A stretch of DNA of 64,000 bases from an uncultured Planctomycetia bacterium. Lineage in GTDB: Bacteria; Omnitrophota; Gorgyraeia; 2-01-FULL-45-10. Position numbers and translations under genes: made by a program. A model generated the notes under the pieces. It ran no database searches, was not told the origin of the DNA, and saw only the letters and a list, made by a program, of their open reading frames with translations. Below, in pieces: positions 148 through 21,205 of this stretch (positions are counted from its first letter, which is position 1; each line of letters opens with the position of its first letter). The DNA lies in NCBI GenBank assembly GCA_964433975.1, contig CAYSSS010000001.1, positions 78,257 to 142,256 of the forward strand, read 5' to 3'.

Positions 148-2043
148 TTGACTATCCCGGTGATAAAGGATATAATCTTCACGTTATACAATATGAAGAA
201 CATACTTAATAAGCTAAGAATACCTGTGATGGTGGGCATGGACCTGATGTTAGTGAATCTGTCTATGTTCCTGGCCTTTGCAATTAGATTTGACTGGCGA
301 TTTACCAACATCATTGCATCTCCCTGTCTGTATTTTATGCTGTGGGCGGTCATTATCAGGATTACGTTATTCGCCATCTTTGGGATATATCAATGGTCAT
401 TTCGCTATGCGAGCATAAGCGAAGCAACGAATGTATTAAAGTCCATAACAATAGGTAGCTTATTACTTATTGCGGTGGCATTTTTTACACAACTCATAGA
501 GATGAGCCGGTCAGTACTGCTAATTGATTATCTGACCTGTCTTTTCCTTATAGGCATATCAAGATTCTCTCCGAGGGCTTTGATTAAATTCACGCAACTA
601 AAATCCTATAATCTCAAAAGAGTTCTTATAGTAGGAGCCGGCGCATCAGGTGAAATGGTCGTTCGTGAGATGATAAGCGCGAAAAAAAGAACTTATCAAC
701 CGGTCGGTTTTATCGACGATAACCCGACTAAGCTGCATTCCCGCATACATGGGGTAAGGGTCTTAGGTAAGATAGAAGACATTAGAGATGTGATAGGCCG
801 CCATAATGTTTCGGAAGTGATCATTGCAGTCCCATCCGCAAGCGGTAATACGATAAGGGATATTGTGTCAAAATGCGCAAAGTCGGATGTAAAGATTAAG
901 ACCGTGCCGGAGCTCCACAAGATCTTAACCGGCGAGGTAACAATAAAACAGATAAGAGACGTAAGCCCGGAAGATCTTTTAGGCAGGGAAACTGTTAGTA
1001 TAAGCATGGAAGATGTAAGTGCTTTTATCAAGGATAAAGTTGTTCTGATAACGGGCGCCGCCGGCACTATAGGGTCAGAATTATCGAGGCAGGTATCAAA
1101 ATTTAACCCGAAGCAACTGATATCATACGATCTGAATGAAAATGACGTATATTTTTTAGAGATCGAGCTCAAGTCGAGCTATCCCTATCTGAAATTTAAT
1201 ACAGTGATAGGCGATATAAAAGATATAGGACTGTTAAAAAATACATTTTCCAAGTACAGGCCCCAAATAGTTTTCCATTCCGCGGCACATAAGCACGTGC
1301 CTCTTATGGAGGGAAATCCGGTCTCTGCCATCAAGAATAATGTTATAGGCACAAGGAATCTTATTTACGCTTCGGAGCACTATATGGTAGAGAGATTTGT
1401 CATGATATCTTCGGATAAAGCGGTAAATCCTACGAATGTAATGGGGGTTTCAAAACGTATAGCGGAAATGATGATACAATCGAAAGCAAAAACAGCCAGG
1501 ACAAAATTTATGGCGGTTAGATTTGGTAATGTTATTGGTTCCAGCGGGAGCGTCGTCCCTATATTCAAGCGACAGATTGAAAGAGGAGAGCCGGTAACTG
1601 TAACCCACCCTGAGGTCAAGAGGTTTTTTATGACCGCTAAAGAGGCCGTGCAGCTTGTCATGCAAGCGGGCGCTATCGGTAAGGAAGGTGAAATCCTTAT
1701 TCTCGATATGGGCGAGCAGATAAAGATACTGGACTTGGCCAAAAGTCTCATAACTTTATCCGGACTTGAGCCCGATAAGGATGTGGGAATTAAGTTTATC
1801 GGTTTAAGACCGGGTGAAAAGATGTATGAGGAAACACTGCTTGATGTAGAGCATGATAGGGCAACCAAACATGATAAGATCTATATTGCGCAGCCAAATA
1901 ATTTTGATCCGATTCAATTGCGGGAAGATATAAAAATACTGGAAAAATTGGCTAATTTAATGGCCGAGGCCAAGATAATAGATAAAATCAAAGAGATGGT
2001 CCCAACTTACAAACCGAATGGTAAATACAATGGCAGTAAATAG
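148..2043 (+). CDS. Membrane-anchored NDP-sugar 4,6-dehydratase of the PglF/CapD/WbpM family (polysaccharide biosynthesis protein).
   Basis: 631 aa. The N-terminus is hydrophobic with multiple TM helices. There are two Rossmann motifs, LIVGAGASGEMVV and VLITGAAGTIGSEL. The SSDKAVNPTNVMGVSKRIAE motif is typical of CapD-like dehydratases. The true start may lie downstream of 148, for example the Met at 208. Confidence 0.85.
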   Translation: MTIPVIKDIIFTLYNMKNILNKLRIPVMVGMDLMLVNLSMFLAFAIRFDWRFTNIIASPCLYFMLWAVIIRITLFAIFGIYQWSFRYASISEATNVLKSITIGSLLLIAVAFFTQLIEMSRSVLLIDYLTCLFLIGISRFSPRALIKFTQLKSYNLKRVLIVGAGASGEMVVREMISAKKRTYQPVGFIDDNPTKLHSRIHGVRVLGKIEDIRDVIGRHNVSEVIIAVPSASGNTIRDIVSKCAKSDVKIKTVPELHKILTGEVTIKQIRDVSPEDLLGRETVSISMEDVSAFIKDKVVLITGAAGTIGSELSRQVSKFNPKQLISYDLNENDVYFLEIELKSSYPYLKFNTVIGDIKDIGLLKNTFSKYRPQIVFHSAAHKHVPLMEGNPVSAIKNNVIGTRNLIYASEHYMVERFVMISSDKAVNPTNVMGVSKRIAEMMIQSKAKTARTKFMAVRFGNVIGSSGSVVPIFKRQIERGEPVTVTHPEVKRFFMTAKEAVQLVMQAGAIGKEGEILILDMGEQIKILDLAKSLITLSGLEPDKDVGIKFIGLRPGEKMYEETLLDVEHDRATKHDKIYIAQPNNFDPIQLREDIKILEKLANLMAEAKIIDKIKEMVPTYKPNGKYNGSK

Positions 2044-4178: not shown

Positions 4179-5765
4179 TTATATTCTGGGAATATCGGCG
4201 TTCTATAATGATTCCGCCGCCGCGCTGCTTAAAGACGGCGAGATAATAGCTGCGGCCCAGGAAGAACGCTTTACGCGTAAAAAGCACGACCCAAGTTTTC
4301 CCAAAAATGCAATATCATATTGCTTGCGCGAAGCAGGTATCGGCAAGGCAGATCTTGATCTAATGGTATTTCATGATGGCAGCTATAAAAAAGACGTAAA
4401 AAAAAACTAAAATTTCGCGGCAAGCAGCTATTTTGCAAACATCACTACGCTCAGGCGGCAAGCGCTTTTTATCCGTCCCCATTCAATAAAGCCGCGATAC
4501 TTGTAGTTGATGGATCAAATGCTCAGGTAGCGGCAGCTTTTGGCAGTGGCACAGACAATTCAATAAAAATTCACTCCTCTATAAAATTCCCGAATTCCAT
4601 AGGGTTGCTATATTCCGTATTTACGCATTATTGCGGATTCAATCCCGATGCTGATGAGTATAAGTTAATGGGGTTGGCTCCTTATGGCAAGCCGGTTTAT
4701 GTTGACCTGATTATGGAGAAGCTTATTAAGCTGAGAATCGACGGTACTTATCGTATAAATTCGAATTACTTTACTTTCCGGGCGAAGCATAAAAAATCCA
4801 ATAAGAAGTTCACAGATCTCTTCGGCGGCCCCCCAAGAAAAAAAGATGACGAGATAGAAAAAAAACATAAGGACCTCGCGCGTTCTGTCCAAGCCGTCAC
4901 GGAGATTGCTTTGATGAACATGGTGAATCGCTTGTACGGGAAAACAAGGCTGGAAAACCTTTGTATGTCAGGTGAAGTGGCGCATAATTGCGTTGCGAAT
5001 GGTAGAATATTAAGGGAAGGGCCTTTTAAGAGGGTGTGGATACAGCCAGCGCCTTCCAGCGCTGGGTGCGCTCTCGGGGCAGCATTTTTAGGTTGGCATG
5101 AATACATGGGCAAGCTCCGAAAAGTCAGCAGGGCCAGAGATTTGCAGAAAGCGAGCCTTCTGGGCCCATCGTTCTCCGATGAAGAAATAGAAAGCTATTT
5201 AGAAGAAAATAATATAAAATATCAAAAATTGGCGAGAGCGGCCCTTTTAGCAAAAGTTGCCGGTTTTCTGGCTGACCAAAGAATAGTTGGGTGGTTCCAG
5301 GGCAGGATGGAGTTCGGCCCCCGCGCTCTGGGGAACCGTAGTATTCTGGCGGATCCCAGGTCAAAAGATATGCGCGATATTATTAATTCAAAAATCAAAT
5401 TCAGGGAAAGTTTCAGGCCATTTGCGCCAAGCGTGCTTCTGGAAAAATCACGGAACTTCTTTGATCTGGAATACGAAAGCCCATACATGCTTTTTGTGTC
5501 AACGGTTAAAAGGAGCGGATTTCCGGCCATAACACATGTTGACGGCTCAGCTAGGGTGCAAACAGTAAAGCATGAAGACAACCCTCTTTTTTATGATTTA
5601 ATAGGGCAGTTTTATAAAGACCACGGTTGCCCCATGGTTATAAATACATCTTTTAACAGGATGGGGGAGCCGATAGTCTGCACGCCTGAGGATGCTTACG
5701 GATGTTTTATGAATACCGAAATGGATTATTTAGTTATGGGTTCATTTATTATTGGAAAGGTTTAG
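4171..5765 (+). pseudogene. NodU/CmcH-family carbamoyltransferase split by a frameshift at an A9 homopolymer (4398-4406). It is either a phase-variable or inactivated gene, or a homopolymer sequencing error.
   Basis: ORF 4171-4410 encodes the family N-terminus (MPDYILGISAFYNDSAAALLKDGEIIAAAQEERFTRKKHD..DLDLMVFHDGS). The adjacent frame continues without a gap with LKFRGKQLFCKHHYAQAASAFYPSPFNKAAILVVDGS..EYKLMGLAPYGKP..., running into the annotated ORF 4605-5765, which carries the C-terminal NodU motifs (GRMEFGPRALGNRSIL, NTSFN). A single +1 change (A10) in the A-run would restore one ~530 aa ORF. Confidence 0.6.
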
Positions 5766-10991: not shown

Positions 10992-12118
10992 TCCCCGTAA
11001 ACGAACCTTTAATAGGAAAAGAAGAGCTAAAAAATATCACCGATTGCGTGAAGTCCGGATGGATATCTTCGAAGGGGAGGTACATAAAAGAGTTTGAAGT
11101 GAAATTTGCCGAATTTTGCGGTGTCCGGTATGGTATTTCCACGACGAGTGGAACAACGGCGCTGCATCTTGCCCTTGCTTGTTTGGGGATAAGAAAAGGC
11201 GACGAAGTCATCATGCCCACCTTCACGATGATCGCGACAGCTTACGCCGTCATGTATCTTGGCGCCAAACCGGTATTTATCGACAGCGAAGAGAGGACAT
11301 GGAATATGGATGTGTCCAAGGTTGAAGAATCGATCAACCCCAAGACCAAAGTGCTGCTTCCCGTGCATATATACGGCCATCCTGTCGATATGGATCCCAT
11401 CATGGCCTTGGCAAAAAAACATGATCTTTTTGTAATAGAGGACGCCGCTGAGGCTCATGGCGCGAAATATAAGGGCAAGGTTTGCGGCTCGATGGGCGAT
11501 ATCAATTGTTTTTCGTTCTACGCGAACAAGGTGATAACGACGGGCGAGGGGGGTATGGTGGTTACCGATGACAAAAAATTATCCGAAAAGGCGAGGCTGC
11601 TGAAAGACCTTTCCCATTCCCCGAAACAGCGCTTTTTGCATACAGCGCTTGCTTATAACTATCGTATGACAAATATGCAGGCGGCGATAGGGCTTGCCCA
11701 GACCGAAAAGGCAAGAGCTCTTATTGAGAAAAAAAGGCGCATAGCCGGCCTCTATAATGATAACCTGAAAGATATTGAAGGGTTAAGATTGCCGATAGAG
11801 GAGAAGTGGGCGAAGAGCGTATACTGGATGTATTCAATTCTGGTTGAAAAAGATTTCGGACTGGATAGAGACCGATTTAGGTCAGAATTATTGAAAGAAG
11901 GGGTCGAGACGCGTTCATTCTTCGTTCCTATGCACCGGCAGCCGGTGATACAAAAGATGGGGCTCGCGGGCAAAAAGAGGAGATATCCCGTTTCCGATTA
12001 TATTTCCGACCATGGCCTCTATCTGCCTACCGGACTTGCTCTTAAACATAAAGATGTATTGCTTGTCTGCGAAAAGATAAGAAAGATACAGAAGAGATAT
12101 GCGTCCAGAACGCGATAA
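10988..12118 (+). CDS. DegT/DnrJ/EryC1/StrS-family PLP-dependent sugar aminotransferase (candidate GDP-perosamine synthase).
   Basis: PLP-lysine region FSFYANKVITTGEGGMVVTDD. Length 376 aa. Located downstream of gmd. Confidence 0.85.
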   Translation: MIPVNEPLIGKEELKNITDCVKSGWISSKGRYIKEFEVKFAEFCGVRYGISTTSGTTALHLALACLGIRKGDEVIMPTFTMIATAYAVMYLGAKPVFIDSEERTWNMDVSKVEESINPKTKVLLPVHIYGHPVDMDPIMALAKKHDLFVIEDAAEAHGAKYKGKVCGSMGDINCFSFYANKVITTGEGGMVVTDDKKLSEKARLLKDLSHSPKQRFLHTALAYNYRMTNMQAAIGLAQTEKARALIEKKRRIAGLYNDNLKDIEGLRLPIEEKWAKSVYWMYSILVEKDFGLDRDRFRSELLKEGVETRSFFVPMHRQPVIQKMGLAGKKRRYPVSDYISDHGLYLPTGLALKHKDVLLVCEKIRKIQKRYASRTR

Positions 12119-13508
12119 AATAAATTTTATCCTGTCGCACCTGGTATTTCTCTTATCGATCATCGTAATATTCTATATCCCCCGATTCTATCCCGTAGTC
12201 CATGAAAATTTTTTGCCTCCCATGGATAGGGTTTTGCGTTTCTATATCATAGGGGTATTCTCCGTATCATTTCTGGCGTATTATCTGTGCGTCCATTTCT
12301 ATAAAAAATCCGGGATATCGGTCTTTAAGCCGGGCTCTCTATCGGTATATTTCTGGATAAGTACGATAGCCGTATTTCTAGTGCTCTGCAGCTCTTCCGC
12401 GCTATTGTCTCATGATCTGTTCGAGTATTCCGTAAGAGGCCGCATGCTCAGTATCTATAAGCTAAATCCGTACCTTCATGTGCCATTGGAGATCAAGAGT
12501 GATATCTTCTTTCCGTTGATATTCTGGAAAAGTACTCCGGAGTGTTATGGGCCGTTATGGGTGGCTATAGGGGCGGTGCATACTCTCTTTTTTAAAAACA
12601 GCGTAGCCCTGACCTCATTCATGCATAAGCTGGTGCTTCTGGCTTTTTTAGGCATGACTTCATCTGTTTTTTACAGACTATGCAAGGACAATATCTCCGA
12701 GGACGCCGGAACGATGACTTTAGCCTTTTTACTAAACCCTTTAGTCCTGGTAATGACGCTGATAGACGGCCATAACGAGATCGCCATGGCTTTTTTTATA
12801 CTTTCGGCCTTTTATCTTCTGGTTAATTCGAAATATAAGCTTTCATCTGCGTTTCTCGCGCTTGCCATAGCCGTCAAGTTCGTCTATATACTGTTCATTC
12901 CTTTATTTATCCTTCATCTCTTATCCCGCAAGGAGGTGCAGGGTTTTGGATGGAAAGTCTATACCTTGATAATGGGAGGCGCCGTCTTTCTGTTTACCAC
13001 GGCAGTCATGTGGCTTCCGTTCGGCAGGGAGAGCGTCAAAGCCATTATTTACTATTACAGCGAATTAAGTAAAAATTTCTGGGTCGATTCGATCCCTTAC
13101 GCCGTATATTTTGTTTCGGAAAAGATGGGGTTCGCGATCTCGAAAGACCTGCTCGCGAATATTTTCTTTGCACTCTTTATAGCGGCCTATCTCTGTATAT
13201 TGGGATATTTCCTGAAGAGGACGAAGATGGACAAACAGGCATTATTCACATCATCCGCTCTAATATTGCTCGCGCTGCTATTTACCAATTCATCGCCGTT
13301 CCAGACCTGGTACTTGATATGGGTGATCCCTTTCATTTTATTAAGCAGTATAAGACTGAAGTTCCAGCTCGTATTTCTCCTGTCCTATTTCTTAATAATG
13401 ACCTTCTGGAAACGCATGTTTGTACTGGCCGTGCCGATGATGGCTGTATGGCTTAGCATGTATTTAGTTGACAAAAAATTTCATAGATTCCCGCTTGCGC
13501 GGGAATGA
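12099..13508 (+). CDS. Polytopic membrane protein, GT-C-like (DUF2029/GT87-type mannosyltransferase-like).
   Basis: 469 aa with more than 10 TM helices. The loop motif HDLFEYSVRGRMLSIYKLNPY resembles the DUF2029 D-D-x-Y-R-Y...G-x-NPY signature. Confidence 0.45.
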   Translation: MRPERDKINFILSHLVFLLSIIVIFYIPRFYPVVHENFLPPMDRVLRFYIIGVFSVSFLAYYLCVHFYKKSGISVFKPGSLSVYFWISTIAVFLVLCSSSALLSHDLFEYSVRGRMLSIYKLNPYLHVPLEIKSDIFFPLIFWKSTPECYGPLWVAIGAVHTLFFKNSVALTSFMHKLVLLAFLGMTSSVFYRLCKDNISEDAGTMTLAFLLNPLVLVMTLIDGHNEIAMAFFILSAFYLLVNSKYKLSSAFLALAIAVKFVYILFIPLFILHLLSRKEVQGFGWKVYTLIMGGAVFLFTTAVMWLPFGRESVKAIIYYYSELSKNFWVDSIPYAVYFVSEKMGFAISKDLLANIFFALFIAAYLCILGYFLKRTKMDKQALFTSSALILLALLFTNSSPFQTWYLIWVIPFILLSSIRLKFQLVFLLSYFLIMTFWKRMFVLAVPMMAVWLSMYLVDKKFHRFPLARE

Positions 13509-14929
13509 CAGAAGTGAAAATACGCGAGGCTATTTTGAAGGATCGTGAGGCTATTTTGAAGGATAGGGTATTCTGGCTGCTTCTGGTATTTGCCGCTCTT
13601 TATATACTGGGTAATATAGGCACGGGAAGCCTTTCGACGTTCGACGAGGCGATTTACGCCAATATATCAAAAAACATCGTCAAAACAGGCGACTGGCTGG
13701 TAATGCGCCAGGGTGTTAAGCCATGGTTCGATAAGCCGCCCCTATATATGTGGTGTACGGCCGTTCTTTACAAAATATTGGGAGTGAGCGAATTTTCTAC
13801 AAGGCTGACATCGGGCATACTTGGCATAGCGGCGGTTATGATCCTGTATCTCTTCGCAAAAAAAATGACAGATAAGATCACGGCCTCTCTGGCCGGCCTG
13901 ATACTCTTGGCTCTGCCGCACTATATCCATTTTTCCAAGATGGGTATGATGGATGTCCCGATAACCTTTTTTACGCTGCTTACGCTTTATCTCTTTTGGC
14001 TTGGAATGGAGAGGGAAAAATATCTATTTTATTCAGGGGCGATACTCTGTGTAGCATATTTAATGAAAGGCTTTGCGGCATTTTTGCCTTTATTCATAAT
14101 CATCGTTTATGCGGTACTATCCAAAAATGTCCGCTTTCTGCTTAAGCGGCAATTCCTGCTTGGCACGGCGCTGGCTCTTTCAGTGATCTTTGTATGGCAT
14201 CTGGCACAACTTATGCTCTTGGGGCCGACCGCCCTTAAAGAATATTTTGGTTTTCATATATTTCAAAGGGCGACTTCCGTGCTCGAGGGACACAAAGGGG
14301 GATTCGATTACTATATACGGGTAATTTTTAAGAAGAACATCCCCTGGTCAATTTTGATCTTCTCCTCTATTTTTTACGCGGCTTATAGATATTTTAAAGA
14401 CAAGGACAAAAGGCTGTTGTTTTTGTTGAGCTGGGTATTTGTCACATTCTTTCTGTATAGCGCGGTAAGGACCAAATTGCAATGGTATATCATGCCTATA
14501 TATCCGGCCCTCGCGCTATTGTCGGCGTTTTTGCTGAAGGGATTTTTAAGAAAGAATCTCATTTATATCGCGTTTGTCGTTATCCTGGCAGGGATGCTGG
14601 TCCAGGTCCCGCTATCGTGGGCATTTAGGCTGGACTATACCCCTGATATAAAGAATGTTTCGCAGATAGGGAGAGGTCTTCATACAGACGGAAATGATAT
14701 ATATATGATAAGCGGGAACGACTCCGAGATATTCTATTACGACTTCGCTATAGAGCTTGATAAAGAAGTATATCGGTCCCTTATGTCGCAAGGCAAGGGG
14801 AAGATCTATTGCATAATACTGCCGGGCATGTTTAAAGATAAGAAGGAAGATTATAATTTTGACGCGGAGCCAATTTATGAGTCAAACAGGACTTCCTTTT
14901 ACAGAATAAAATTTAAGGACAGGAAATAA
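13505..14929 (+). CDS. GT-C fold membrane glycosyltransferase, ArnT/PMT_2-like.
   Basis: GSLSTFDEAIYANISKNIVKTGDWLV...FDKPPLYMW matches the ArnT D-E...KPPL loop signature. The ATGA start/stop overlap with the upstream gene indicates translational coupling. Confidence 0.7.
   Translation: MTEVKIREAILKDREAILKDRVFWLLLVFAALYILGNIGTGSLSTFDEAIYANISKNIVKTGDWLVMRQGVKPWFDKPPLYMWCTAVLYKILGVSEFSTRLTSGILGIAAVMILYLFAKKMTDKITASLAGLILLALPHYIHFSKMGMMDVPITFFTLLTLYLFWLGMEREKYLFYSGAILCVAYLMKGFAAFLPLFIIIVYAVLSKNVRFLLKRQFLLGTALALSVIFVWHLAQLMLLGPTALKEYFGFHIFQRATSVLEGHKGGFDYYIRVIFKKNIPWSILIFSSIFYAAYRYFKDKDKRLLFLLSWVFVTFFLYSAVRTKLQWYIMPIYPALALLSAFLLKGFLRKNLIYIAFVVILAGMLVQVPLSWAFRLDYTPDIKNVSQIGRGLHTDGNDIYMISGNDSEIFYYDFAIELDKEVYRSLMSQGKGKIYCIILPGMFKDKKEDYNFDAEPIYESNRTSFYRIKFKDRK
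13523..13564 (+). repeat. Perfect-but-one tandem duplication of a 21 bp unit (cgcgaggctattttgaaggat, then cgtgaggctattttgaaggat) within the 5' end of the GT-C gene.
   Basis: Read directly from the sequence. It encodes REAILKD REAILKD in frame. Confidence 0.85.
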
Positions 14930-14931
14930 AT

Positions 14932-15645
14932 ATGTCTGTTTACTTATCGATAATAATACCTGCTTATAACGAAGAAAAGAGGATAGGCCCGACCCTTTCC
15001 AATGTGTGCGGCTTTTTTAAAACAAAAAATTATGAGTACGAAGTTATTCTTGTCGATGACGGCAGCAGCGACAGGACCGTCTCGGAAGCCGAAGATAGCG
15101 AGCTGGCGAATACAGGTAAGCTGAAGATAGTCAAAAACAGCGTGAATAAGGGTAAGGGGTTCTCCGTAAAGAACGGCATATTAAAGAGCTTAGGTGAGTA
15201 CGTGCTCTTCAGCGACGCGGACTTATCTACGCCTATAGAGGAGGCGGATAAGCTCTTCGATCACATAGGCAAAGGTTACGATATAGTGATCGGCTCGCGC
15301 AGTATCGCCGGATCCAACGTAAAGGTACGCCAGCCTTTCTATAGGGAGAAGATGGGCAGGATATTCAATTATTTTATAAATAGCCTCTTGATGGGCGGGT
15401 TTATCGATACGCAATGCGGTTTTAAGCTTTTCAAGGGCAGTGTGGCCAGGCAGATCGGTAAAGAGCTTACAATAAACGGTTTTTGTTTTGATGTCGAGAT
15501 GCTCTATCTAGCCAGGAAAGAGGGCTATAAGATCGCGGAGGTAGGTATCACGTGGGAGAATTCACCTCAAAGCAAGGTGCGCGTCTTTAGCAGCTCTCTT
15601 TCTATGTTTATAGATCTTCTAAAGATAAAGAGAAGGCACGGATGA
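14932..15645 (+). CDS. GT2 polyprenyl-phosphate sugar synthase (DPM1-like).
   Basis: IIIPAYNEEKRIGPTL and LVDDGSSD motifs. 237 aa. Confidence 0.8.
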   Translation: MSVYLSIIIPAYNEEKRIGPTLSNVCGFFKTKNYEYEVILVDDGSSDRTVSEAEDSELANTGKLKIVKNSVNKGKGFSVKNGILKSLGEYVLFSDADLSTPIEEADKLFDHIGKGYDIVIGSRSIAGSNVKVRQPFYREKMGRIFNYFINSLLMGGFIDTQCGFKLFKGSVARQIGKELTINGFCFDVEMLYLARKEGYKIAEVGITWENSPQSKVRVFSSSLSMFIDLLKIKRRHG

Positions 15646-17363
15646 GATTTCATAAATCAAATTACCCGATATTAGTCATCATAGCCATAGGATTGTCTCT
15701 TCGTATATGGGGAATCAATTTTGGTCTGCCATACCAATTTCACCAGGATGAACCGATCATAGTCAATCATGCCCTCGCATACGGGACGGGGGACCTAAAC
15801 CCGCATTTTTTCATAATTCCACCACTCGCTTCTTATCTACTGTTCGGTTTTTATGTCCTTTATTTTTTTATAGGCAGCATATCCGGCATATTCACAGGCG
15901 TGGAACAGTTCTCCTTAAGTTTCTTCAGAGATCCAACGCCTTTTTATATTATCGGGAGGGTTATCCTTGGCGTATTGCCGAGTATCTTGAGCGTATATTT
16001 AATATATAAGCTGGCGATAAGGTTTTTTTCAAAGAAAGCTGCGCTTTACGCGTCGCTTATCATGGCCGTTACATTTTTAAACGTTATCAACGCGCATTAC
16101 GCGTATGCCGACAACCTGCTCGTATTTTTTGTGCTACTGGCCTATCTGGCAATGTCGATGCTTATGGACAGTCCAAAAATATCCAATTATGTTATTGCGG
16201 GGATATTAACCGGTCTGGCTATTGCCACGAAATATAATGCCGTATTGCTTGTTGTGCCATTGCTTGTTGCTCACATCGTAACTTTCCGTCATTGCGAGGA
16301 GTCCCGCCGCTTTTTGGCGGGACGACGAAGCAATCTCATTAACCTAAATTTGCTGATATTCGGCGCAACGGCCGTCTTTACGTTTATCATATGCAATCCC
16401 TACTCTCTTCTCGATGCAGGCTTCTTCTGGGAGTCACTGACCCACAGGATAAGGGGCGGCTACAGGGGGATGGGACATCACCTTACATATTCATTATTTG
16501 AAGGCGCTGGAGCTGCTCCGGTCATATTGGGAATCATAGGATTGGGCTGGCTCTTAAAAAAAGATCTTAAGAAAGGGATCTTTCTCATCTCTTTTCCGGC
16601 TATTTTTTATCTGCACCTTATTTTCAAAAGCCAGTCGTTCCCGAGGTATGCGCTGCCCGTGATCCCTTTTTTGGCCATCGGACTATCGTTTTTACTCTTC
16701 GGTCTATACGAAAGACTGAAGACGAACGCTTTAAAGGCGGCCATAGTCGCCGTCTCGTTGATTCTTGTTATGCCTACGGCCGCGAAGTCTATCAAGGCGG
16801 ACATGCTCTTTGCGGGCAAAGATACGCGTATAGAGGCAAAGGAGTGGATGGAGAAGAATATACGGCCCCGGACGCGTATAGCGCTTGCCCACACGTTCTT
16901 CAGTCCTCCGCTTGAACAGACGACGGAACAGTTGAAAGAGAAAGAGGGCATACTTTCAGGGCAGCCGGAACTGAAGGATCTGAAGAGCAAAAAACTGGAA
17001 CTTCTCATAAAAGGCCGTAAGGCCCCCATTACATATCAGGTATACTACTTAAGGGGTGACAATGAAGCTCCCGGCCAATTCCTGAATTTCTGGCCGGTGA
17101 TAGAGAATTCAGTGAACGATCTACGGAAAAATGATATCACTTACGTAATCTTTAATAATACGGACCCGTCCGAAGCGTTAAAAGAGTTGCAAAAGGAAGC
17201 GGGTAGTATATTTAAGCCGGTTGCCGTATTCAGCCCTTATGTGGATGATAAATTCAGGCTTCCATACGACCCGATAGAGCTTACATGCTTGCCCGCGGGG
17301 ACTAAAGAGCTCTTCTCAAGGCGCGCCGCGGGGCCATATCTGGTCATCTATAAAATAAAATGA
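15642..17363 (+). CDS. GT-C fold membrane glycosyltransferase, ArnT/PMT_2-like. It carries an in-frame hairpin repeat insertion.
   Basis: 573 aa polytopic, with the loop YQFHQDEPIIVNHALAYGTGDLNPHFFIIPPL (D-E...PPL). Confidence 0.6.
   Translation: MRFHKSNYPILVIIAIGLSLRIWGINFGLPYQFHQDEPIIVNHALAYGTGDLNPHFFIIPPLASYLLFGFYVLYFFIGSISGIFTGVEQFSLSFFRDPTPFYIIGRVILGVLPSILSVYLIYKLAIRFFSKKAALYASLIMAVTFLNVINAHYAYADNLLVFFVLLAYLAMSMLMDSPKISNYVIAGILTGLAIATKYNAVLLVVPLLVAHIVTFRHCEESRRFLAGRRSNLINLNLLIFGATAVFTFIICNPYSLLDAGFFWESLTHRIRGGYRGMGHHLTYSLFEGAGAAPVILGIIGLGWLLKKDLKKGIFLISFPAIFYLHLIFKSQSFPRYALPVIPFLAIGLSFLLFGLYERLKTNALKAAIVAVSLILVMPTAAKSIKADMLFAGKDTRIEAKEWMEKNIRPRTRIALAHTFFSPPLEQTTEQLKEKEGILSGQPELKDLKSKKLELLIKGRKAPITYQVYYLRGDNEAPGQFLNFWPVIENSVNDLRKNDITYVIFNNTDPSEALKELQKEAGSIFKPVAVFSPYVDDKFRLPYDPIELTCLPAGTKELFSRRAAGPYLVIYKIK
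16288..16335 (+). repeat. Small MITE/RPE-like palindromic element inserted in-frame in a GT-C gene (copy 1).
   Basis: gtcattgcgaggagtcccgccgctttttggcgggacgacgaagcaatc. The hairpin is GTCCCGCC-N8-GGCGGGAC. The termini gtcattgcgaggagtcccgccg and gggacgacgaagcaatc are shared exactly with copy 2 at 20170-20237. Confidence 0.7.
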
Positions 17364-19537: not shown

Positions 19538-21205
19538 ATGAAGATAAAAATATTTGTAATAATTCTACTGTCGATATTCGCCGTATTAACGATATCGAGT
19601 ATGCGGCAAAATTCGGCTACTTGCGACGAGATAGCGCATCATATACCCGTAGGATATGTTTTATTGAATAAATGGGATTTCAAGATGGATACATCGCAAC
19701 CGCCACTGCCGCGATATATAGTAGCTTTACCGTTGAAACTATTTATGAATATAAATATGCCCGATGACAGGGCTCTTTGGAGGGTGCAAGACCGGTCTAT
19801 TTTCGGCAGGGATTTTTTCTACAAATATAATCGTGATCAGATCAAGATGGTCTTTTTTGCCAGGATGGCCGTTGTTTTTATAGGTATGTTATGCGGTCTG
19901 CTGCTATTTATATGGGCAAAGTCACTTTGGGGCGAAAGAGCCGCTCTATTTAGCCTGTTTTTTTACGCTCTTTCTCCAAATATATTGGCTCATGCCGGTC
20001 TTGCCACCACTGATATGGTAGCGACGTTTTTTATACTCCTCTCTTGTTATTCATTCTGGCTCTTCCTGAAGAATGCTTCAATCACAAATATCATATTCGC
20101 GGCTGTCTGTCTTGGGCTGGCTGAGCTCTCTAAATACACGGCCATCCTGCTTTATCCGATATTCTTACTGTCATTGCGAGGAGTCCCGCCGAAGACCCTC
20201 GACCTCGCCGAGAGGCGAGCGGGACGACGAAGCAATCCCACAATTTCAAAGTTCCTGTCCGTTATCTTTTTATCTTTGATCGTTGTGTGGGCCGCCTATG
20301 GATTTGAATTTCAACCATTACTTAAAGATTCGATGCGCCTCGATGAAAAACTTCAGATCGCACACAATATCGCTAAAAAAGTATACCCGCATATCAGCCC
20401 GGCGGCAATTGACCGCCTGGACGATTTTTTACTGAAGGTCCCGGTGCCGTTGGGCAGCCACATTCTCGGGATAATGGGCGTGTTTCGTCACGGTTACGAA
20501 GGGCATAGTACTTATTTTTTGGGGAGGTGGTCAAGTCACGGCGATCCGCTCTATTTTTTAGTCGCTTTTTTGATAAAGACACCCATACCGCTAATCATTT
20601 TTTTGCTCATTGGTATTTTCATATTTTTGAAGCAGAGATCGCAGATGGGAGAGAGGTTTATTTTTATCGTAGCGGCCGTATTCTTTGTGGCGTCATCTTT
20701 AAGCGGGCTGAAGTTGGGGTTAAGGCACATATTGCCCCTTTACCCGTTCTGTTTCATGATATGCGGCGGTGCCGTAGTGCTATTGAAGAAGAAATATGTT
20801 AATATACTATTGTATAGTCTAATGGCATGGTATGCGTTTATATCGGTCAAAACATGGCCGCATTATTTGGGCTACTTTAATGAAGCGATAGGCGGTCCGG
20901 CAAACGGATATAAATACCTCAGGGATTCAAACGTTGATTGGGGGCAGGACCTGCCGTCACTATCGCGGTATATGGAGAAAAACGGTATAAAAGAGATAGC
21001 GCTTGAATATTTCGGACAGGCGGACCCGGTTGTTTACGGCGTTCATTACAGAAAGTTTATGCCGGATGAATTTGAAAAGCCGCATGACGCGGTTTATGCC
21101 GTAAGCGCCCAATATCTGGAGGGTGTCAAATGGACGAAGGATCATAAACCTGCGGCAGCCGCAGGCTATTCTATATTTATCTATGATTTTGCCAAGGAAA
21201 AATAG
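19538..21205 (+). CDS. GT-C fold membrane glycosyltransferase, ArnT/PMT_2-like. It is a paralog of 5752-7491 and carries an in-frame hairpin repeat insertion.
   Basis: ATCDEIAHHIPVGY...QPPLPRYIVALPL, and the C-terminal YFNEAIGGPANGYKYLRDSNVDWGQD, shared with the 5752 gene. Confidence 0.65.
   Translation: MKIKIFVIILLSIFAVLTISSMRQNSATCDEIAHHIPVGYVLLNKWDFKMDTSQPPLPRYIVALPLKLFMNINMPDDRALWRVQDRSIFGRDFFYKYNRDQIKMVFFARMAVVFIGMLCGLLLFIWAKSLWGERAALFSLFFYALSPNILAHAGLATTDMVATFFILLSCYSFWLFLKNASITNIIFAAVCLGLAELSKYTAILLYPIFLLSLRGVPPKTLDLAERRAGRRSNPTISKFLSVIFLSLIVVWAAYGFEFQPLLKDSMRLDEKLQIAHNIAKKVYPHISPAAIDRLDDFLLKVPVPLGSHILGIMGVFRHGYEGHSTYFLGRWSSHGDPLYFLVAFLIKTPIPLIIFLLIGIFIFLKQRSQMGERFIFIVAAVFFVASSLSGLKLGLRHILPLYPFCFMICGGAVVLLKKKYVNILLYSLMAWYAFISVKTWPHYLGYFNEAIGGPANGYKYLRDSNVDWGQDLPSLSRYMEKNGIKEIALEYFGQADPVVYGVHYRKFMPDEFEKPHDAVYAVSAQYLEGVKWTKDHKPAAAAGYSIFIYDFAKEK
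20170..20237 (+). repeat. Small MITE/RPE-like palindromic element inserted in-frame in a GT-C gene (copy 2, the longer variant).
   Basis: gtcattgcgaggagtcccgccgaagaccctcgacctcgccgagaggcgagcgggacgacgaagcaatc. It has the same 22 bp and 17 bp termini as copy 1. Relative to the element it is read in a different frame (SLRGVPP... versus HCEESRR...). Confidence 0.7.

Follow-up and report, generated by a model that had tools for sequence, protein, structure and literature searches.

How can one and the same DNA hairpin come to lie, in frame, inside two paralogous genes whose remaining sequences have drifted apart? The question is raised by a 64,000-nucleotide stretch (hereafter the window) from an uncultured Planctomycetia bacterium, placed by GTDB in the Omnitrophota (Gorgyraeia; 2-01-FULL-45-10), which covers positions 78,257 to 142,256 of the forward strand of contig CAYSSS010000001.1 (assembly GCA_964433975.1). 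An initial annotation made from the letters alone had singled out a 48-bp palindrome at 16288–16335, with a second copy at 20170–20237, as a mini-element inserted into genes for GT-C glycosyltransferases. Here we characterise both copies, their relatives in other bacteria and the gene with which those relatives are associated. Taken together, the evidence makes it likely that both copies are solo units of a distinct and widespread class of hairpin repeats related to the targets of Ssn nucleases, which would propagate through a single-stranded DNA (ssDNA) mechanism and would persist within genes as survivors of selection for an intact reading frame. We refer to these repeats as the ATTGC class.

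A shared hairpin within two diverged glycosyltransferase genes

Copy 1 (16288–16335, plus strand, 48 nt, a solo unit of 'left' type) lies within the open reading frame (ORF) 15642–17363, and copy 2 (20170–20237, plus strand, 68 nt) within the ORF 19538–21205; the two sequences are found exactly where the initial annotation had placed them. Copy 1 reads GTCATTGCGAGGAGTCCCGCCG-CTTTTTG-GCGGGACGACGAAGCAATC. It begins with GTC, after which ATTGC (16291–16295) pairs with GCAAT (16330–16334) to form a basal stem; an internal loop of GAGGA opposite GACGAA leads to a 9-bp distal stem (16301–16309 with 16315–16323), and a C at 16335 closes the element. Copy 2 has the same ends and a longer, branched distal hairpin with a 41-nt interior. 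Both copies are therefore two-part hairpins, with a basal ATTGC/GCAAT stem, a purine internal loop and a GC-rich distal stem, so the GC-rich hairpin originally described is only the distal part of the structure. Both copies are computed to fold as RNA (−25.4 kcal/mol, z −3.9, for copy 1; −30.4 kcal/mol, z −3.2, for copy 2) and also as ssDNA (−12.5 kcal/mol for copy 1, equalled by 2 of 200 shuffles; −15.5 kcal/mol for copy 2, equalled by 5 of 200).

A repeat search of the window found 22 left and 19 right bases to be identical between the copies, the right end having first been reported as 17, whereas the flanking coding DNA is about 77% identical or less, a divergence that had been noted correctly. 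By chance, a 14-mer with up to two mismatches would be expected 0.34 times in the 64-kb window; chance falls far short of explaining an exact 22-mer that recurs over such a length. At the left end, gene 1 reads RHCEES and gene 2 reads SLRGVP, the two frames being different, and the right ends share a frame and read GRRSN. Because the left ends are read in different frames, the identity resides in the DNA and not in the protein, and most orthologues lack the segment; the initial view of a DNA-level element over a protein motif was right on both counts. No ATTGC-class copy beyond these two was found within the window. Rfam gave no match across the whole window at the gathering threshold and, at E ≤ 10 around copy 1, only chance-level matches (E > 1, 11–15 bits). 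At 396–427 (plus strand), within the ORF 148–2043, GGTCATTTCGCTATGCGAGCATAAGCGAAGCAACG combines a GTCA head with a 6-bp stem; this segment is weakly repeat-like and could be a chance resemblance or a decayed copy.

The two host genes encode paralogous GT-C glycosyltransferases. Gene 1 (15642–17363, plus strand, 573 aa; PMT_2/PMT, GT39-like) and gene 2 (19538–21205, plus strand, 555 aa) both match Pfam PF13231 and PF02366; homologues of gene 1 are named glycosyltransferase family 39 or ArnT and belong to Candidatus Omnitrophota, and those of gene 2 are also annotated as Candidatus Omnitrophota. Both ORFs run uninterrupted across the element, in line with the in-frame residence claimed for the first of them. 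Copy 1 encodes residues ~216–232 of protein 1, RHCEESRRFLAGRRSNL, and copy 2 encodes SLRGVPPKTLDLAERRAGRRSN in protein 2. In an AlphaFold2 model of protein 1 (mean predicted local distance difference test score, pLDDT, 71.7), residues 218–232 have pLDDT below 50 and lie between helices 198–217 and 235–251, which suggests that copy 1 occupies a tolerant inter-helix loop.

Comparison with orthologues indicates what the elements did to these loops. At site 1, the syntenic orthologues in L122 and L123 are without the hairpin, and L121, which was assembled independently from a different sample, carries a copy at precisely this position (~5640–5720). The L121 copy shows partial decay: 3 nt have been lost from GAGGAG, and a small second hairpin, GCCTGCCTTGCCGGCAGGC, is nested in its right arm. 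At site 2, 38 of 40 orthologues are without the element, and about 19 loop residues are replaced by 26 in the window protein; in one orthologue, from another metagenome-assembled genome (MAG), an independent copy of the short form, translated as SLRGAKRRSNL, lies in that loop a few residues from the site. The net gains amount to only +9 residues (+27 nt) at site 1 and +7 residues (+21 nt) at site 2, so ancestral loop codons were lost or replaced. The original proposal that the element adds a peptide to a loop thus holds for the loop but not for a simple addition.

The distribution at site 1 is patchy. The L121 protein (P0003) has the element, its relatives P0006 and P0007 at 91–92% identity do not, and the nearest relative of window protein 1 is another protein without it. 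Judged from these sequence relationships, the pattern does not fit a single gain on the gene tree. When the empty orthologous loops were compared with the element and scored against shuffles, the L123 loop was found to keep CGAAGTAATCC, which resembles the right end of the element at a marginal level (shuffle test p ~0.02–0.04), and the L122 loops at both sites showed no similarity to it; 603 of 2000 shuffles scored as well as the L122 loop.

A hairpin class found across bacterial phyla

The 25 conserved bases of the two copies, CATTGCGAGGAG N(0–30) CGACGAAGCAATC, recur exactly in more than 120 stretches in each of three collections (IMG/VR, GTDB species genomes and JGI metagenomes), counts that are lower bounds (at least 120 stretches per collection among the matches listed). 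Named hosts span about 13 phyla. They include Bradyrhizobium and many other Alphaproteobacteria, Gammaproteobacteria, Bacteroidota (Pedobacter, Chryseobacterium, Flavobacterium), Chloroflexota, Desulfobacterota, Zixibacteria, Patescibacteria, Latescibacterota, Ignavibacteriota, Armatimonadota, Verrucomicrobiota, Bacillota, Binatia and Omnitrophota; Rickettsiales genomes (L145, L191) also carry copies. BLAST searches added unannotated copies on plasmids of Novosphingobium (at least 40 places on one megaplasmid), Methylosinus, Methylocystis and Legionella. Full-text literature searches with the DNA strings, their RNA forms and six encoded peptides returned primer or chance matches only.

The commonest copy is a 30-nt form with a 5-nt interior, which folds weakly on its own by standard parameters. 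Longer interiors form stems with compensatory changes (16 distinct stem identities among 101 distinct interiors), and 78% of the maximal possible stem is formed, compared with 36% in shuffled interiors. Immediately before CATTGC, GT is present in 271 of 276 copies and is itself preceded by C or T in 260 of 276, although neither feature was part of the search pattern; the trailing C did belong to the pattern and was tested only in the window copies.

Most often the hairpins occur as a doublet of 80–90 nt, GTCATTGCGAG..GAAGCAATC, a spacer, and GATTGCTTC..CTCGCAATGAC. An inverted partner (GATTGCTTCGCTTCGCTCGCAATGAC and variants) follows within 0–60 nt in 122 of 276 left units, mostly at 11–40 nt, and the spacer often starts with CAG and ends with CTG. 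No target-site duplication was found in 86 of 92 unique doublets, in which the consensus extends by one base only (C...G).

Some loci depart from this pattern. L199, L232 and L328 hold dense arrays with hairpins every 70–135 nt and similar spacers, which resemble BIMEs and not CRISPR arrays. In L058, from IMG/VR, about eight tandem units of ~130 nt (..CCTCACTGTCCTCAC..GGAGGAAAACGATGAGAGAAC..) stand between two hairpin doublets. On L141, a 2452-bp contig of a Patescibacteria MAG, two doublets flank an ORF of ~330 aa that is transposase-like, with an N-terminal CxxC..CxxC; this ORF may be a second kind of cargo, or an insertion sequence that landed between repeats.

A GIY-YIG gene between inverted hairpins

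In a Bacillota MAG (L181), the spacer between inverted hairpins consists of a 95-aa ORF that starts 11 nt past the left hairpin and stops immediately short of the right one, and the encoded protein matches Pfam GIY-YIG (2.7e-15). L181 was the only one of the first 243 loci to contain such an ORF. Among metagenome loci whose inner hairpin ends are 290–320 nt apart, a GIY-YIG ORF lies between the hairpins in 91 of 120 (120 loci among the matches listed, ORFs by six-frame search), and the remaining 29 hold mostly further repeat copies; the same scan of viral contigs gave two irrelevant matches only. The gene occurs in either orientation relative to the longer 'GAG..CGAC' type of hairpin. In several loci (L257, L295, L296, L300, L301, L312, L346 and L357) the frame opposite the GIY-YIG gene is also open, at equal or greater length, which is probably a by-product of composition. 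The protein family is very large, with 7995 of 8000 scored candidates at E ≤ 1e-10, and most contigs carrying its genes are shorter than 1 kb, as expected because repeats break assemblies.

This arrangement has a precedent in Neisseria. In the report by Chenal et al. (Nat Commun 2025, PMC11893778), the repeat NTS is given as CGTCATTCCCGCGMAVGCGGGAATCYRG, an oriented superset of the Neisseria dRS3 repeat, and repeats of this general kind (Ssn-related motifs, SRMs) flank ssnA, which encodes a 94-aa GIY-YIG protein; the NTS-ssnA-NTS arrangement is noted there as insertion-sequence-like. SsnA is described as binding NTS only as ssDNA, not RNA, with the cut placed a few bases upstream; cleavage is governed by the three bases that precede the palindrome, and binding depends most on the C that directly follows it. 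Binding and cutting are reported for four Ssn/NTS pairs from Neisseria and Wolbachia. In N. meningitidis, according to the same source, the system limits transformation with DNA that carries NTS, only 2% of the NTS copies are located inside genes, and clustering of NTS around membrane-protein genes led to a proposed role in shaping recombination (PMC11893778).

Both window copies keep the contact bases, reading CGTC-ATTGC..GCAAT-C and TGTC-ATTGC..GCAAT-C, and the head that recurs across the class agrees with CGTCAT of NTS. Relatives of the associated GIY-YIG protein in IMG/VR (45–49% identity) are flanked by a different, analogous hairpin, GTCATCCCGG..CCGGGAYCCAG, and one NTS-like hairpin flanking these relatives matches the published SRM motif. 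Of the families suggested initially for comparison, namely Rickettsia palindromic elements, Correia elements and ERIC, the first is apt as regards behaviour, but the family to which the copies belong is that of the Ssn-related NTS/SRM repeats.

Further copies in the glycosyltransferase cluster

The window contains a third hairpin, this one of the canonical NTS/SRM type. At 13483–13510 (minus strand), TGTCATTCCCGCGCAAGCGGGAATCTAT is the sole window match to the published SRM search motif, of which we used a regular-expression version that also matches the NTS consensus. It folds as ssDNA at −9.0 kcal/mol (z −4.3) and sits at the junction of the genes 12099–13508 and 13505–14929, where the overlapping stop (TGA) and start (ATG) codons of the two both come from its ATGAC end. 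The upstream protein takes its final residues (..HRFPLARE*) from the hairpin, whose ATG starts the downstream GT-C gene. No NTS-type hairpin is present at the orthologous junctions of L121 and L122, so that each of the three window copies, which together span 6.8 kb, has orthologues that lack the element. Thirteen nucleotides downstream of this hairpin, a 21-nt tandem duplication (13523–13543 and 13544–13564; CGCGAGGCTATTTTGAAGGAT / CGTGAGGCTATTTTGAAGGAT) repeats the N-terminal peptide REAILKD encoded by the GT-C gene 13505–14929, of which orthologues have a single copy; the duplication may be a repair footprint of the NTS-type insertion.

We also read the host contig, which is 295,816 bp long (k141_168704 of ENA analysis ERZ27248937), for 9.1 kb past the end of the window, giving 73 kb in all. 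This added three full ATTGC-class copies and one half copy on the minus strand (L370 17723–17795, 18476–18515 and 20473–20504; window-equivalent ~69,901–72,682), and the initial count of two copies is therefore too low for this genome. Each of these copies is in frame in a gene for a GT9 or GT4 glycosyltransferase, and one forms the C-terminus of the protein. Their translations are RLLRRKEVLQHPPRND-GSNNSLAMT, EIASSPPSAAPRND and, at the C-terminus, DCFGPSALAMTG*, in three further reading frames. All seven copies in the 73 kb thus lie within genes or at gene ends of a polysaccharide and glycosyltransferase cluster, a region with almost no intergenic DNA.

Residence of the hairpins within genes

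Across the family, a frame that stays open over 60 codons or more on each side surrounds 23–30% of copies, compared with 63–71% of random positions in the same loci; the 23–30% is an upper bound, given that GC-rich genomes have spurious open frames. Copies are depleted from coding sequence, and in-gene copies are still not rare. The search for other copies proposed with the initial annotation, and for whether they are intergenic, thus has a clear answer, since the exact ends recur in hundreds of loci and mostly between genes; nothing remains of the contrary expectation that the copies might be a conserved protein motif without relatives elsewhere in the genome.

The consensus is open in five of its six frames. 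Where open frames span a copy, 50 are sense and 27 antisense, close to the 3:2 expected from the number of open frames. Copies 1 and 2 are in sense orientation relative to their host genes, and the copies in the next three genes past the window are antisense. In-frame hairpins of this class add arginine-rich loops or new protein ends, and the NTS-type hairpin once supplied a stop and a start codon. Such repeats generate variation in protein length and repeatedly give rise to the odd peptides 'SLRGAKRRSNL / LLRRFAPRND / DCFVASLLAMT' in annotated proteins.

Discussion

We propose a model in which the full element consists of two inverted ATTGC-class hairpins around a 95-aa ssn gene, accompanied by the commoner gene-less doublets with spacers of 11–40 nt and by solo units such as the window copies. 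The GTCAT-bearing strand would fold into the hairpin whenever it becomes single-stranded, during replication, transformation or conjugation, and by analogy with the Ssn/NTS pairs a cognate Ssn would bind the hairpin and cut a few bases upstream. Recognition of ssDNA could then multiply gene-less copies in trans, in the manner of IS200/IS605 elements or REPINs and without target-site duplication. Selection would keep those copies that preserve the reading frame and lie in tolerant places, such as inter-helix loops and protein ends; in the present gene cluster, surviving copies would be found inside genes because almost no intergenic space is available. The outcome is an arginine-rich loop of 16–23 residues in each GT-C protein, which is presumably neutral in function.

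Several points weigh against this model. To our knowledge, transposition activity has never been shown for any Ssn, and the role known from Neisseria is to restrict transforming ssDNA. The 64-kb window and the 9.1 kb beyond it contain no ssn gene. Clean insertion fits neither of the window copies, as the gains of 27 and 21 nt fall short of the 48 and 68 nt of the elements, and with the patchy distribution at site 1, simple cut-and-paste or copy-and-paste insertion is not demonstrated. NCBIfam gave no family for the associated nuclease, a putative member of CDD family cd10448 (the Ssn clade); indirect support for that membership comes from its single domain of 95 aa and from the relatives at 45–49% identity with NTS-like hairpins on their flanks. 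Finally, the published motif, HGTCWYN(0-2)YYVSBRHN(0-5)WNVSBRGN(0-2)RNCYNB, misses copies 1 and 2 as well as the common 30-nt and 26-nt forms.

It is possible, although we consider it improbable, that the copies are marks maintained by the host, with Ssn restricting or shaping the recombination of incoming ssDNA at surface-glycan loci. All seven copies in the 73 kb are in the glycan cluster, three of them within 6.8 kb, and the window copies match 25 of 25 consensus positions against an orthologous divergence of ~25%, which suggests recent origin or maintenance; the Neisseria work provides a precedent (PMC11893778). The clustering carries little statistical weight, however, as nearly the whole 73 kb consists of glycan genes; no ssn gene is seen there, and the visible decay of the L121 copy argues against strong maintenance. 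Host maintenance concerns the benefit of the element and not its identity, and would be compatible with the Ssn-related model.

A more far-reaching form of that model holds that the ATTGC class is the most broadly distributed Ssn hairpin and that it spreads by a site-preferring ssDNA process akin to recombination or homing, and not by random transposition. We regard this as unlikely, but three kinds of observation hint at it: a copy of the same subfamily occupies the same codon position in two non-sister orthologues whose closest relatives are without it, an independent copy lies in the homologous loop of another MAG (P0126), and in-gene copies replace sequence. Were it true, the class would be a cross-phylum generator of in-frame peptide insertions and, together with Ssn, a means of recombination control at surface-glycan loci.

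That the hairpin acts mainly as a structure in mRNA, affecting stability, translation pausing or termination, is very unlikely. REP-like elements can stabilise transcripts, and the predicted RNA hairpins of the window copies are stable (about −25 and −30 kcal/mol, z ~−3 to −4). Nevertheless, there is no match to an Rfam family and no T-run, the copies occur in both orientations to their host genes at a sense to antisense ratio (50:27) near the expected 3:2, the common 30-nt form folds poorly alone, and Ssn is reported not to bind RNA (PMC11893778).

Movement as a REP or REPIN by a RAYT transposase of the IS200/IS605 Y1 family is, in our estimation, scarcely probable. Inverted-hairpin doublets, the lack of target-site duplication and high copy number do resemble REPINs, but 91 of 120 loci have a GIY-YIG ORF between their inverted hairpins, where no Y1 transposase was met. 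The conserved 5' bases are YGTC, as in NTS, and not those of a REP head, which is of GTAG type, and REP families are lineage-specific, whereas the ATTGC-class sequence is invariant across phyla.

The last alternatives, an ancestral GT-C loop peptide motif or an assembly artefact, have a negligible chance of being correct: some hairpin-less orthologues do have R-[SG]-N-[FLP] at this place and the L123 loop keeps its resemblance to the right end, but the same DNA is read in different frames across genes and is intergenic in other phyla, the L122 loop resembles the element no better than shuffles do, and an independent assembly from another sample (L121) has the copy at the same site.

Several implications follow from the assignment to Ssn-related repeats. 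Ssn and NTS were described only in 2025. Published SRM censuses may under-count, because the published motif misses a second hairpin architecture present in ~13 phyla; a form that admits the ATTGC class would be, for example, YGTCATTGCGAG N(3–45) GAAGCAATC. Each hairpin class could also serve biotechnology as a new candidate specificity for the programmable cutting of ssDNA.

Comparison with known systems

Elements that are small and non-autonomous, have inverted symmetry, reach high copy numbers and occasionally affect nearby genes are familiar from the miniature inverted-repeat transposable elements, including Neisseria Correia elements and ERIC. The ATTGC class shares these features, but such elements have terminal inverted repeats, target-site duplications and DDE-type transposases, whereas 86 of 92 doublets here are without duplication and the partner is a GIY-YIG gene.

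The likeness to Rickettsia palindromic elements is one of behaviour. These, too, are small palindromes that lie in frame in coding genes and add a peptide, presumably in tolerant surface regions. They are reportedly ~100–150 bp long and specific to Rickettsia (Ogata et al. 2000), whereas ATTGC-class copies are shorter and not limited to that genus.

With REP/REPIN-RAYT and IS200/IS605 systems, the ATTGC class has in common short hairpins that are, or here would be, recognised as ssDNA, inverted doublets, the lack of target-site duplication and a repeat-flanked partner gene; it differs in that the partner is a GIY-YIG nuclease instead of an HUH Y1 transposase, and in a sequence that is shared across phyla instead of lineage-specific. 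The Bradyrhizobium repeats Br-REP1 and Br-REP2 (PMC5082802) were considered as possible members and rejected, as their sequences differ. By eye, the reverse complement of the Br-REP2 consensus (TCATTCCGGGG...CCCGGAATCTCG; PMC5082802) has the GTCAT-hairpin-ATC layout of an SRM, and Br-REP2 may belong to the same superfamily as the SRMs.

The closest known system is NTS/SRM. As there, the ATTGC class is an oriented hairpin whose palindrome has YGTC directly before it and C directly behind it, a single-domain GIY-YIG gene of ~95 aa is flanked by inverted copies, and gene-less copies vastly outnumber gene-bearing ones; the class also occurs in many phyla and clusters near genes for surface structures. 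The palindrome is ATTGC..GCAAT where that of NTS is ATTCCC..GGGAAT, and the stem is bipartite, with a conserved purine-rich internal loop (GAG/GAA) and a variable distal hairpin of 3 to more than 40 nt. The two also differ in their relation to genes, with at most 23–30% of ATTGC-class copies in ORFs overall, and seven of seven within or at the ends of genes in the 73 kb studied here, compared with the 2% given for NTS in N. meningitidis. The ATTGC class is a distinct structural class of an already known kind, the Ssn-related repeats, with an unusual propensity for in-frame residence.

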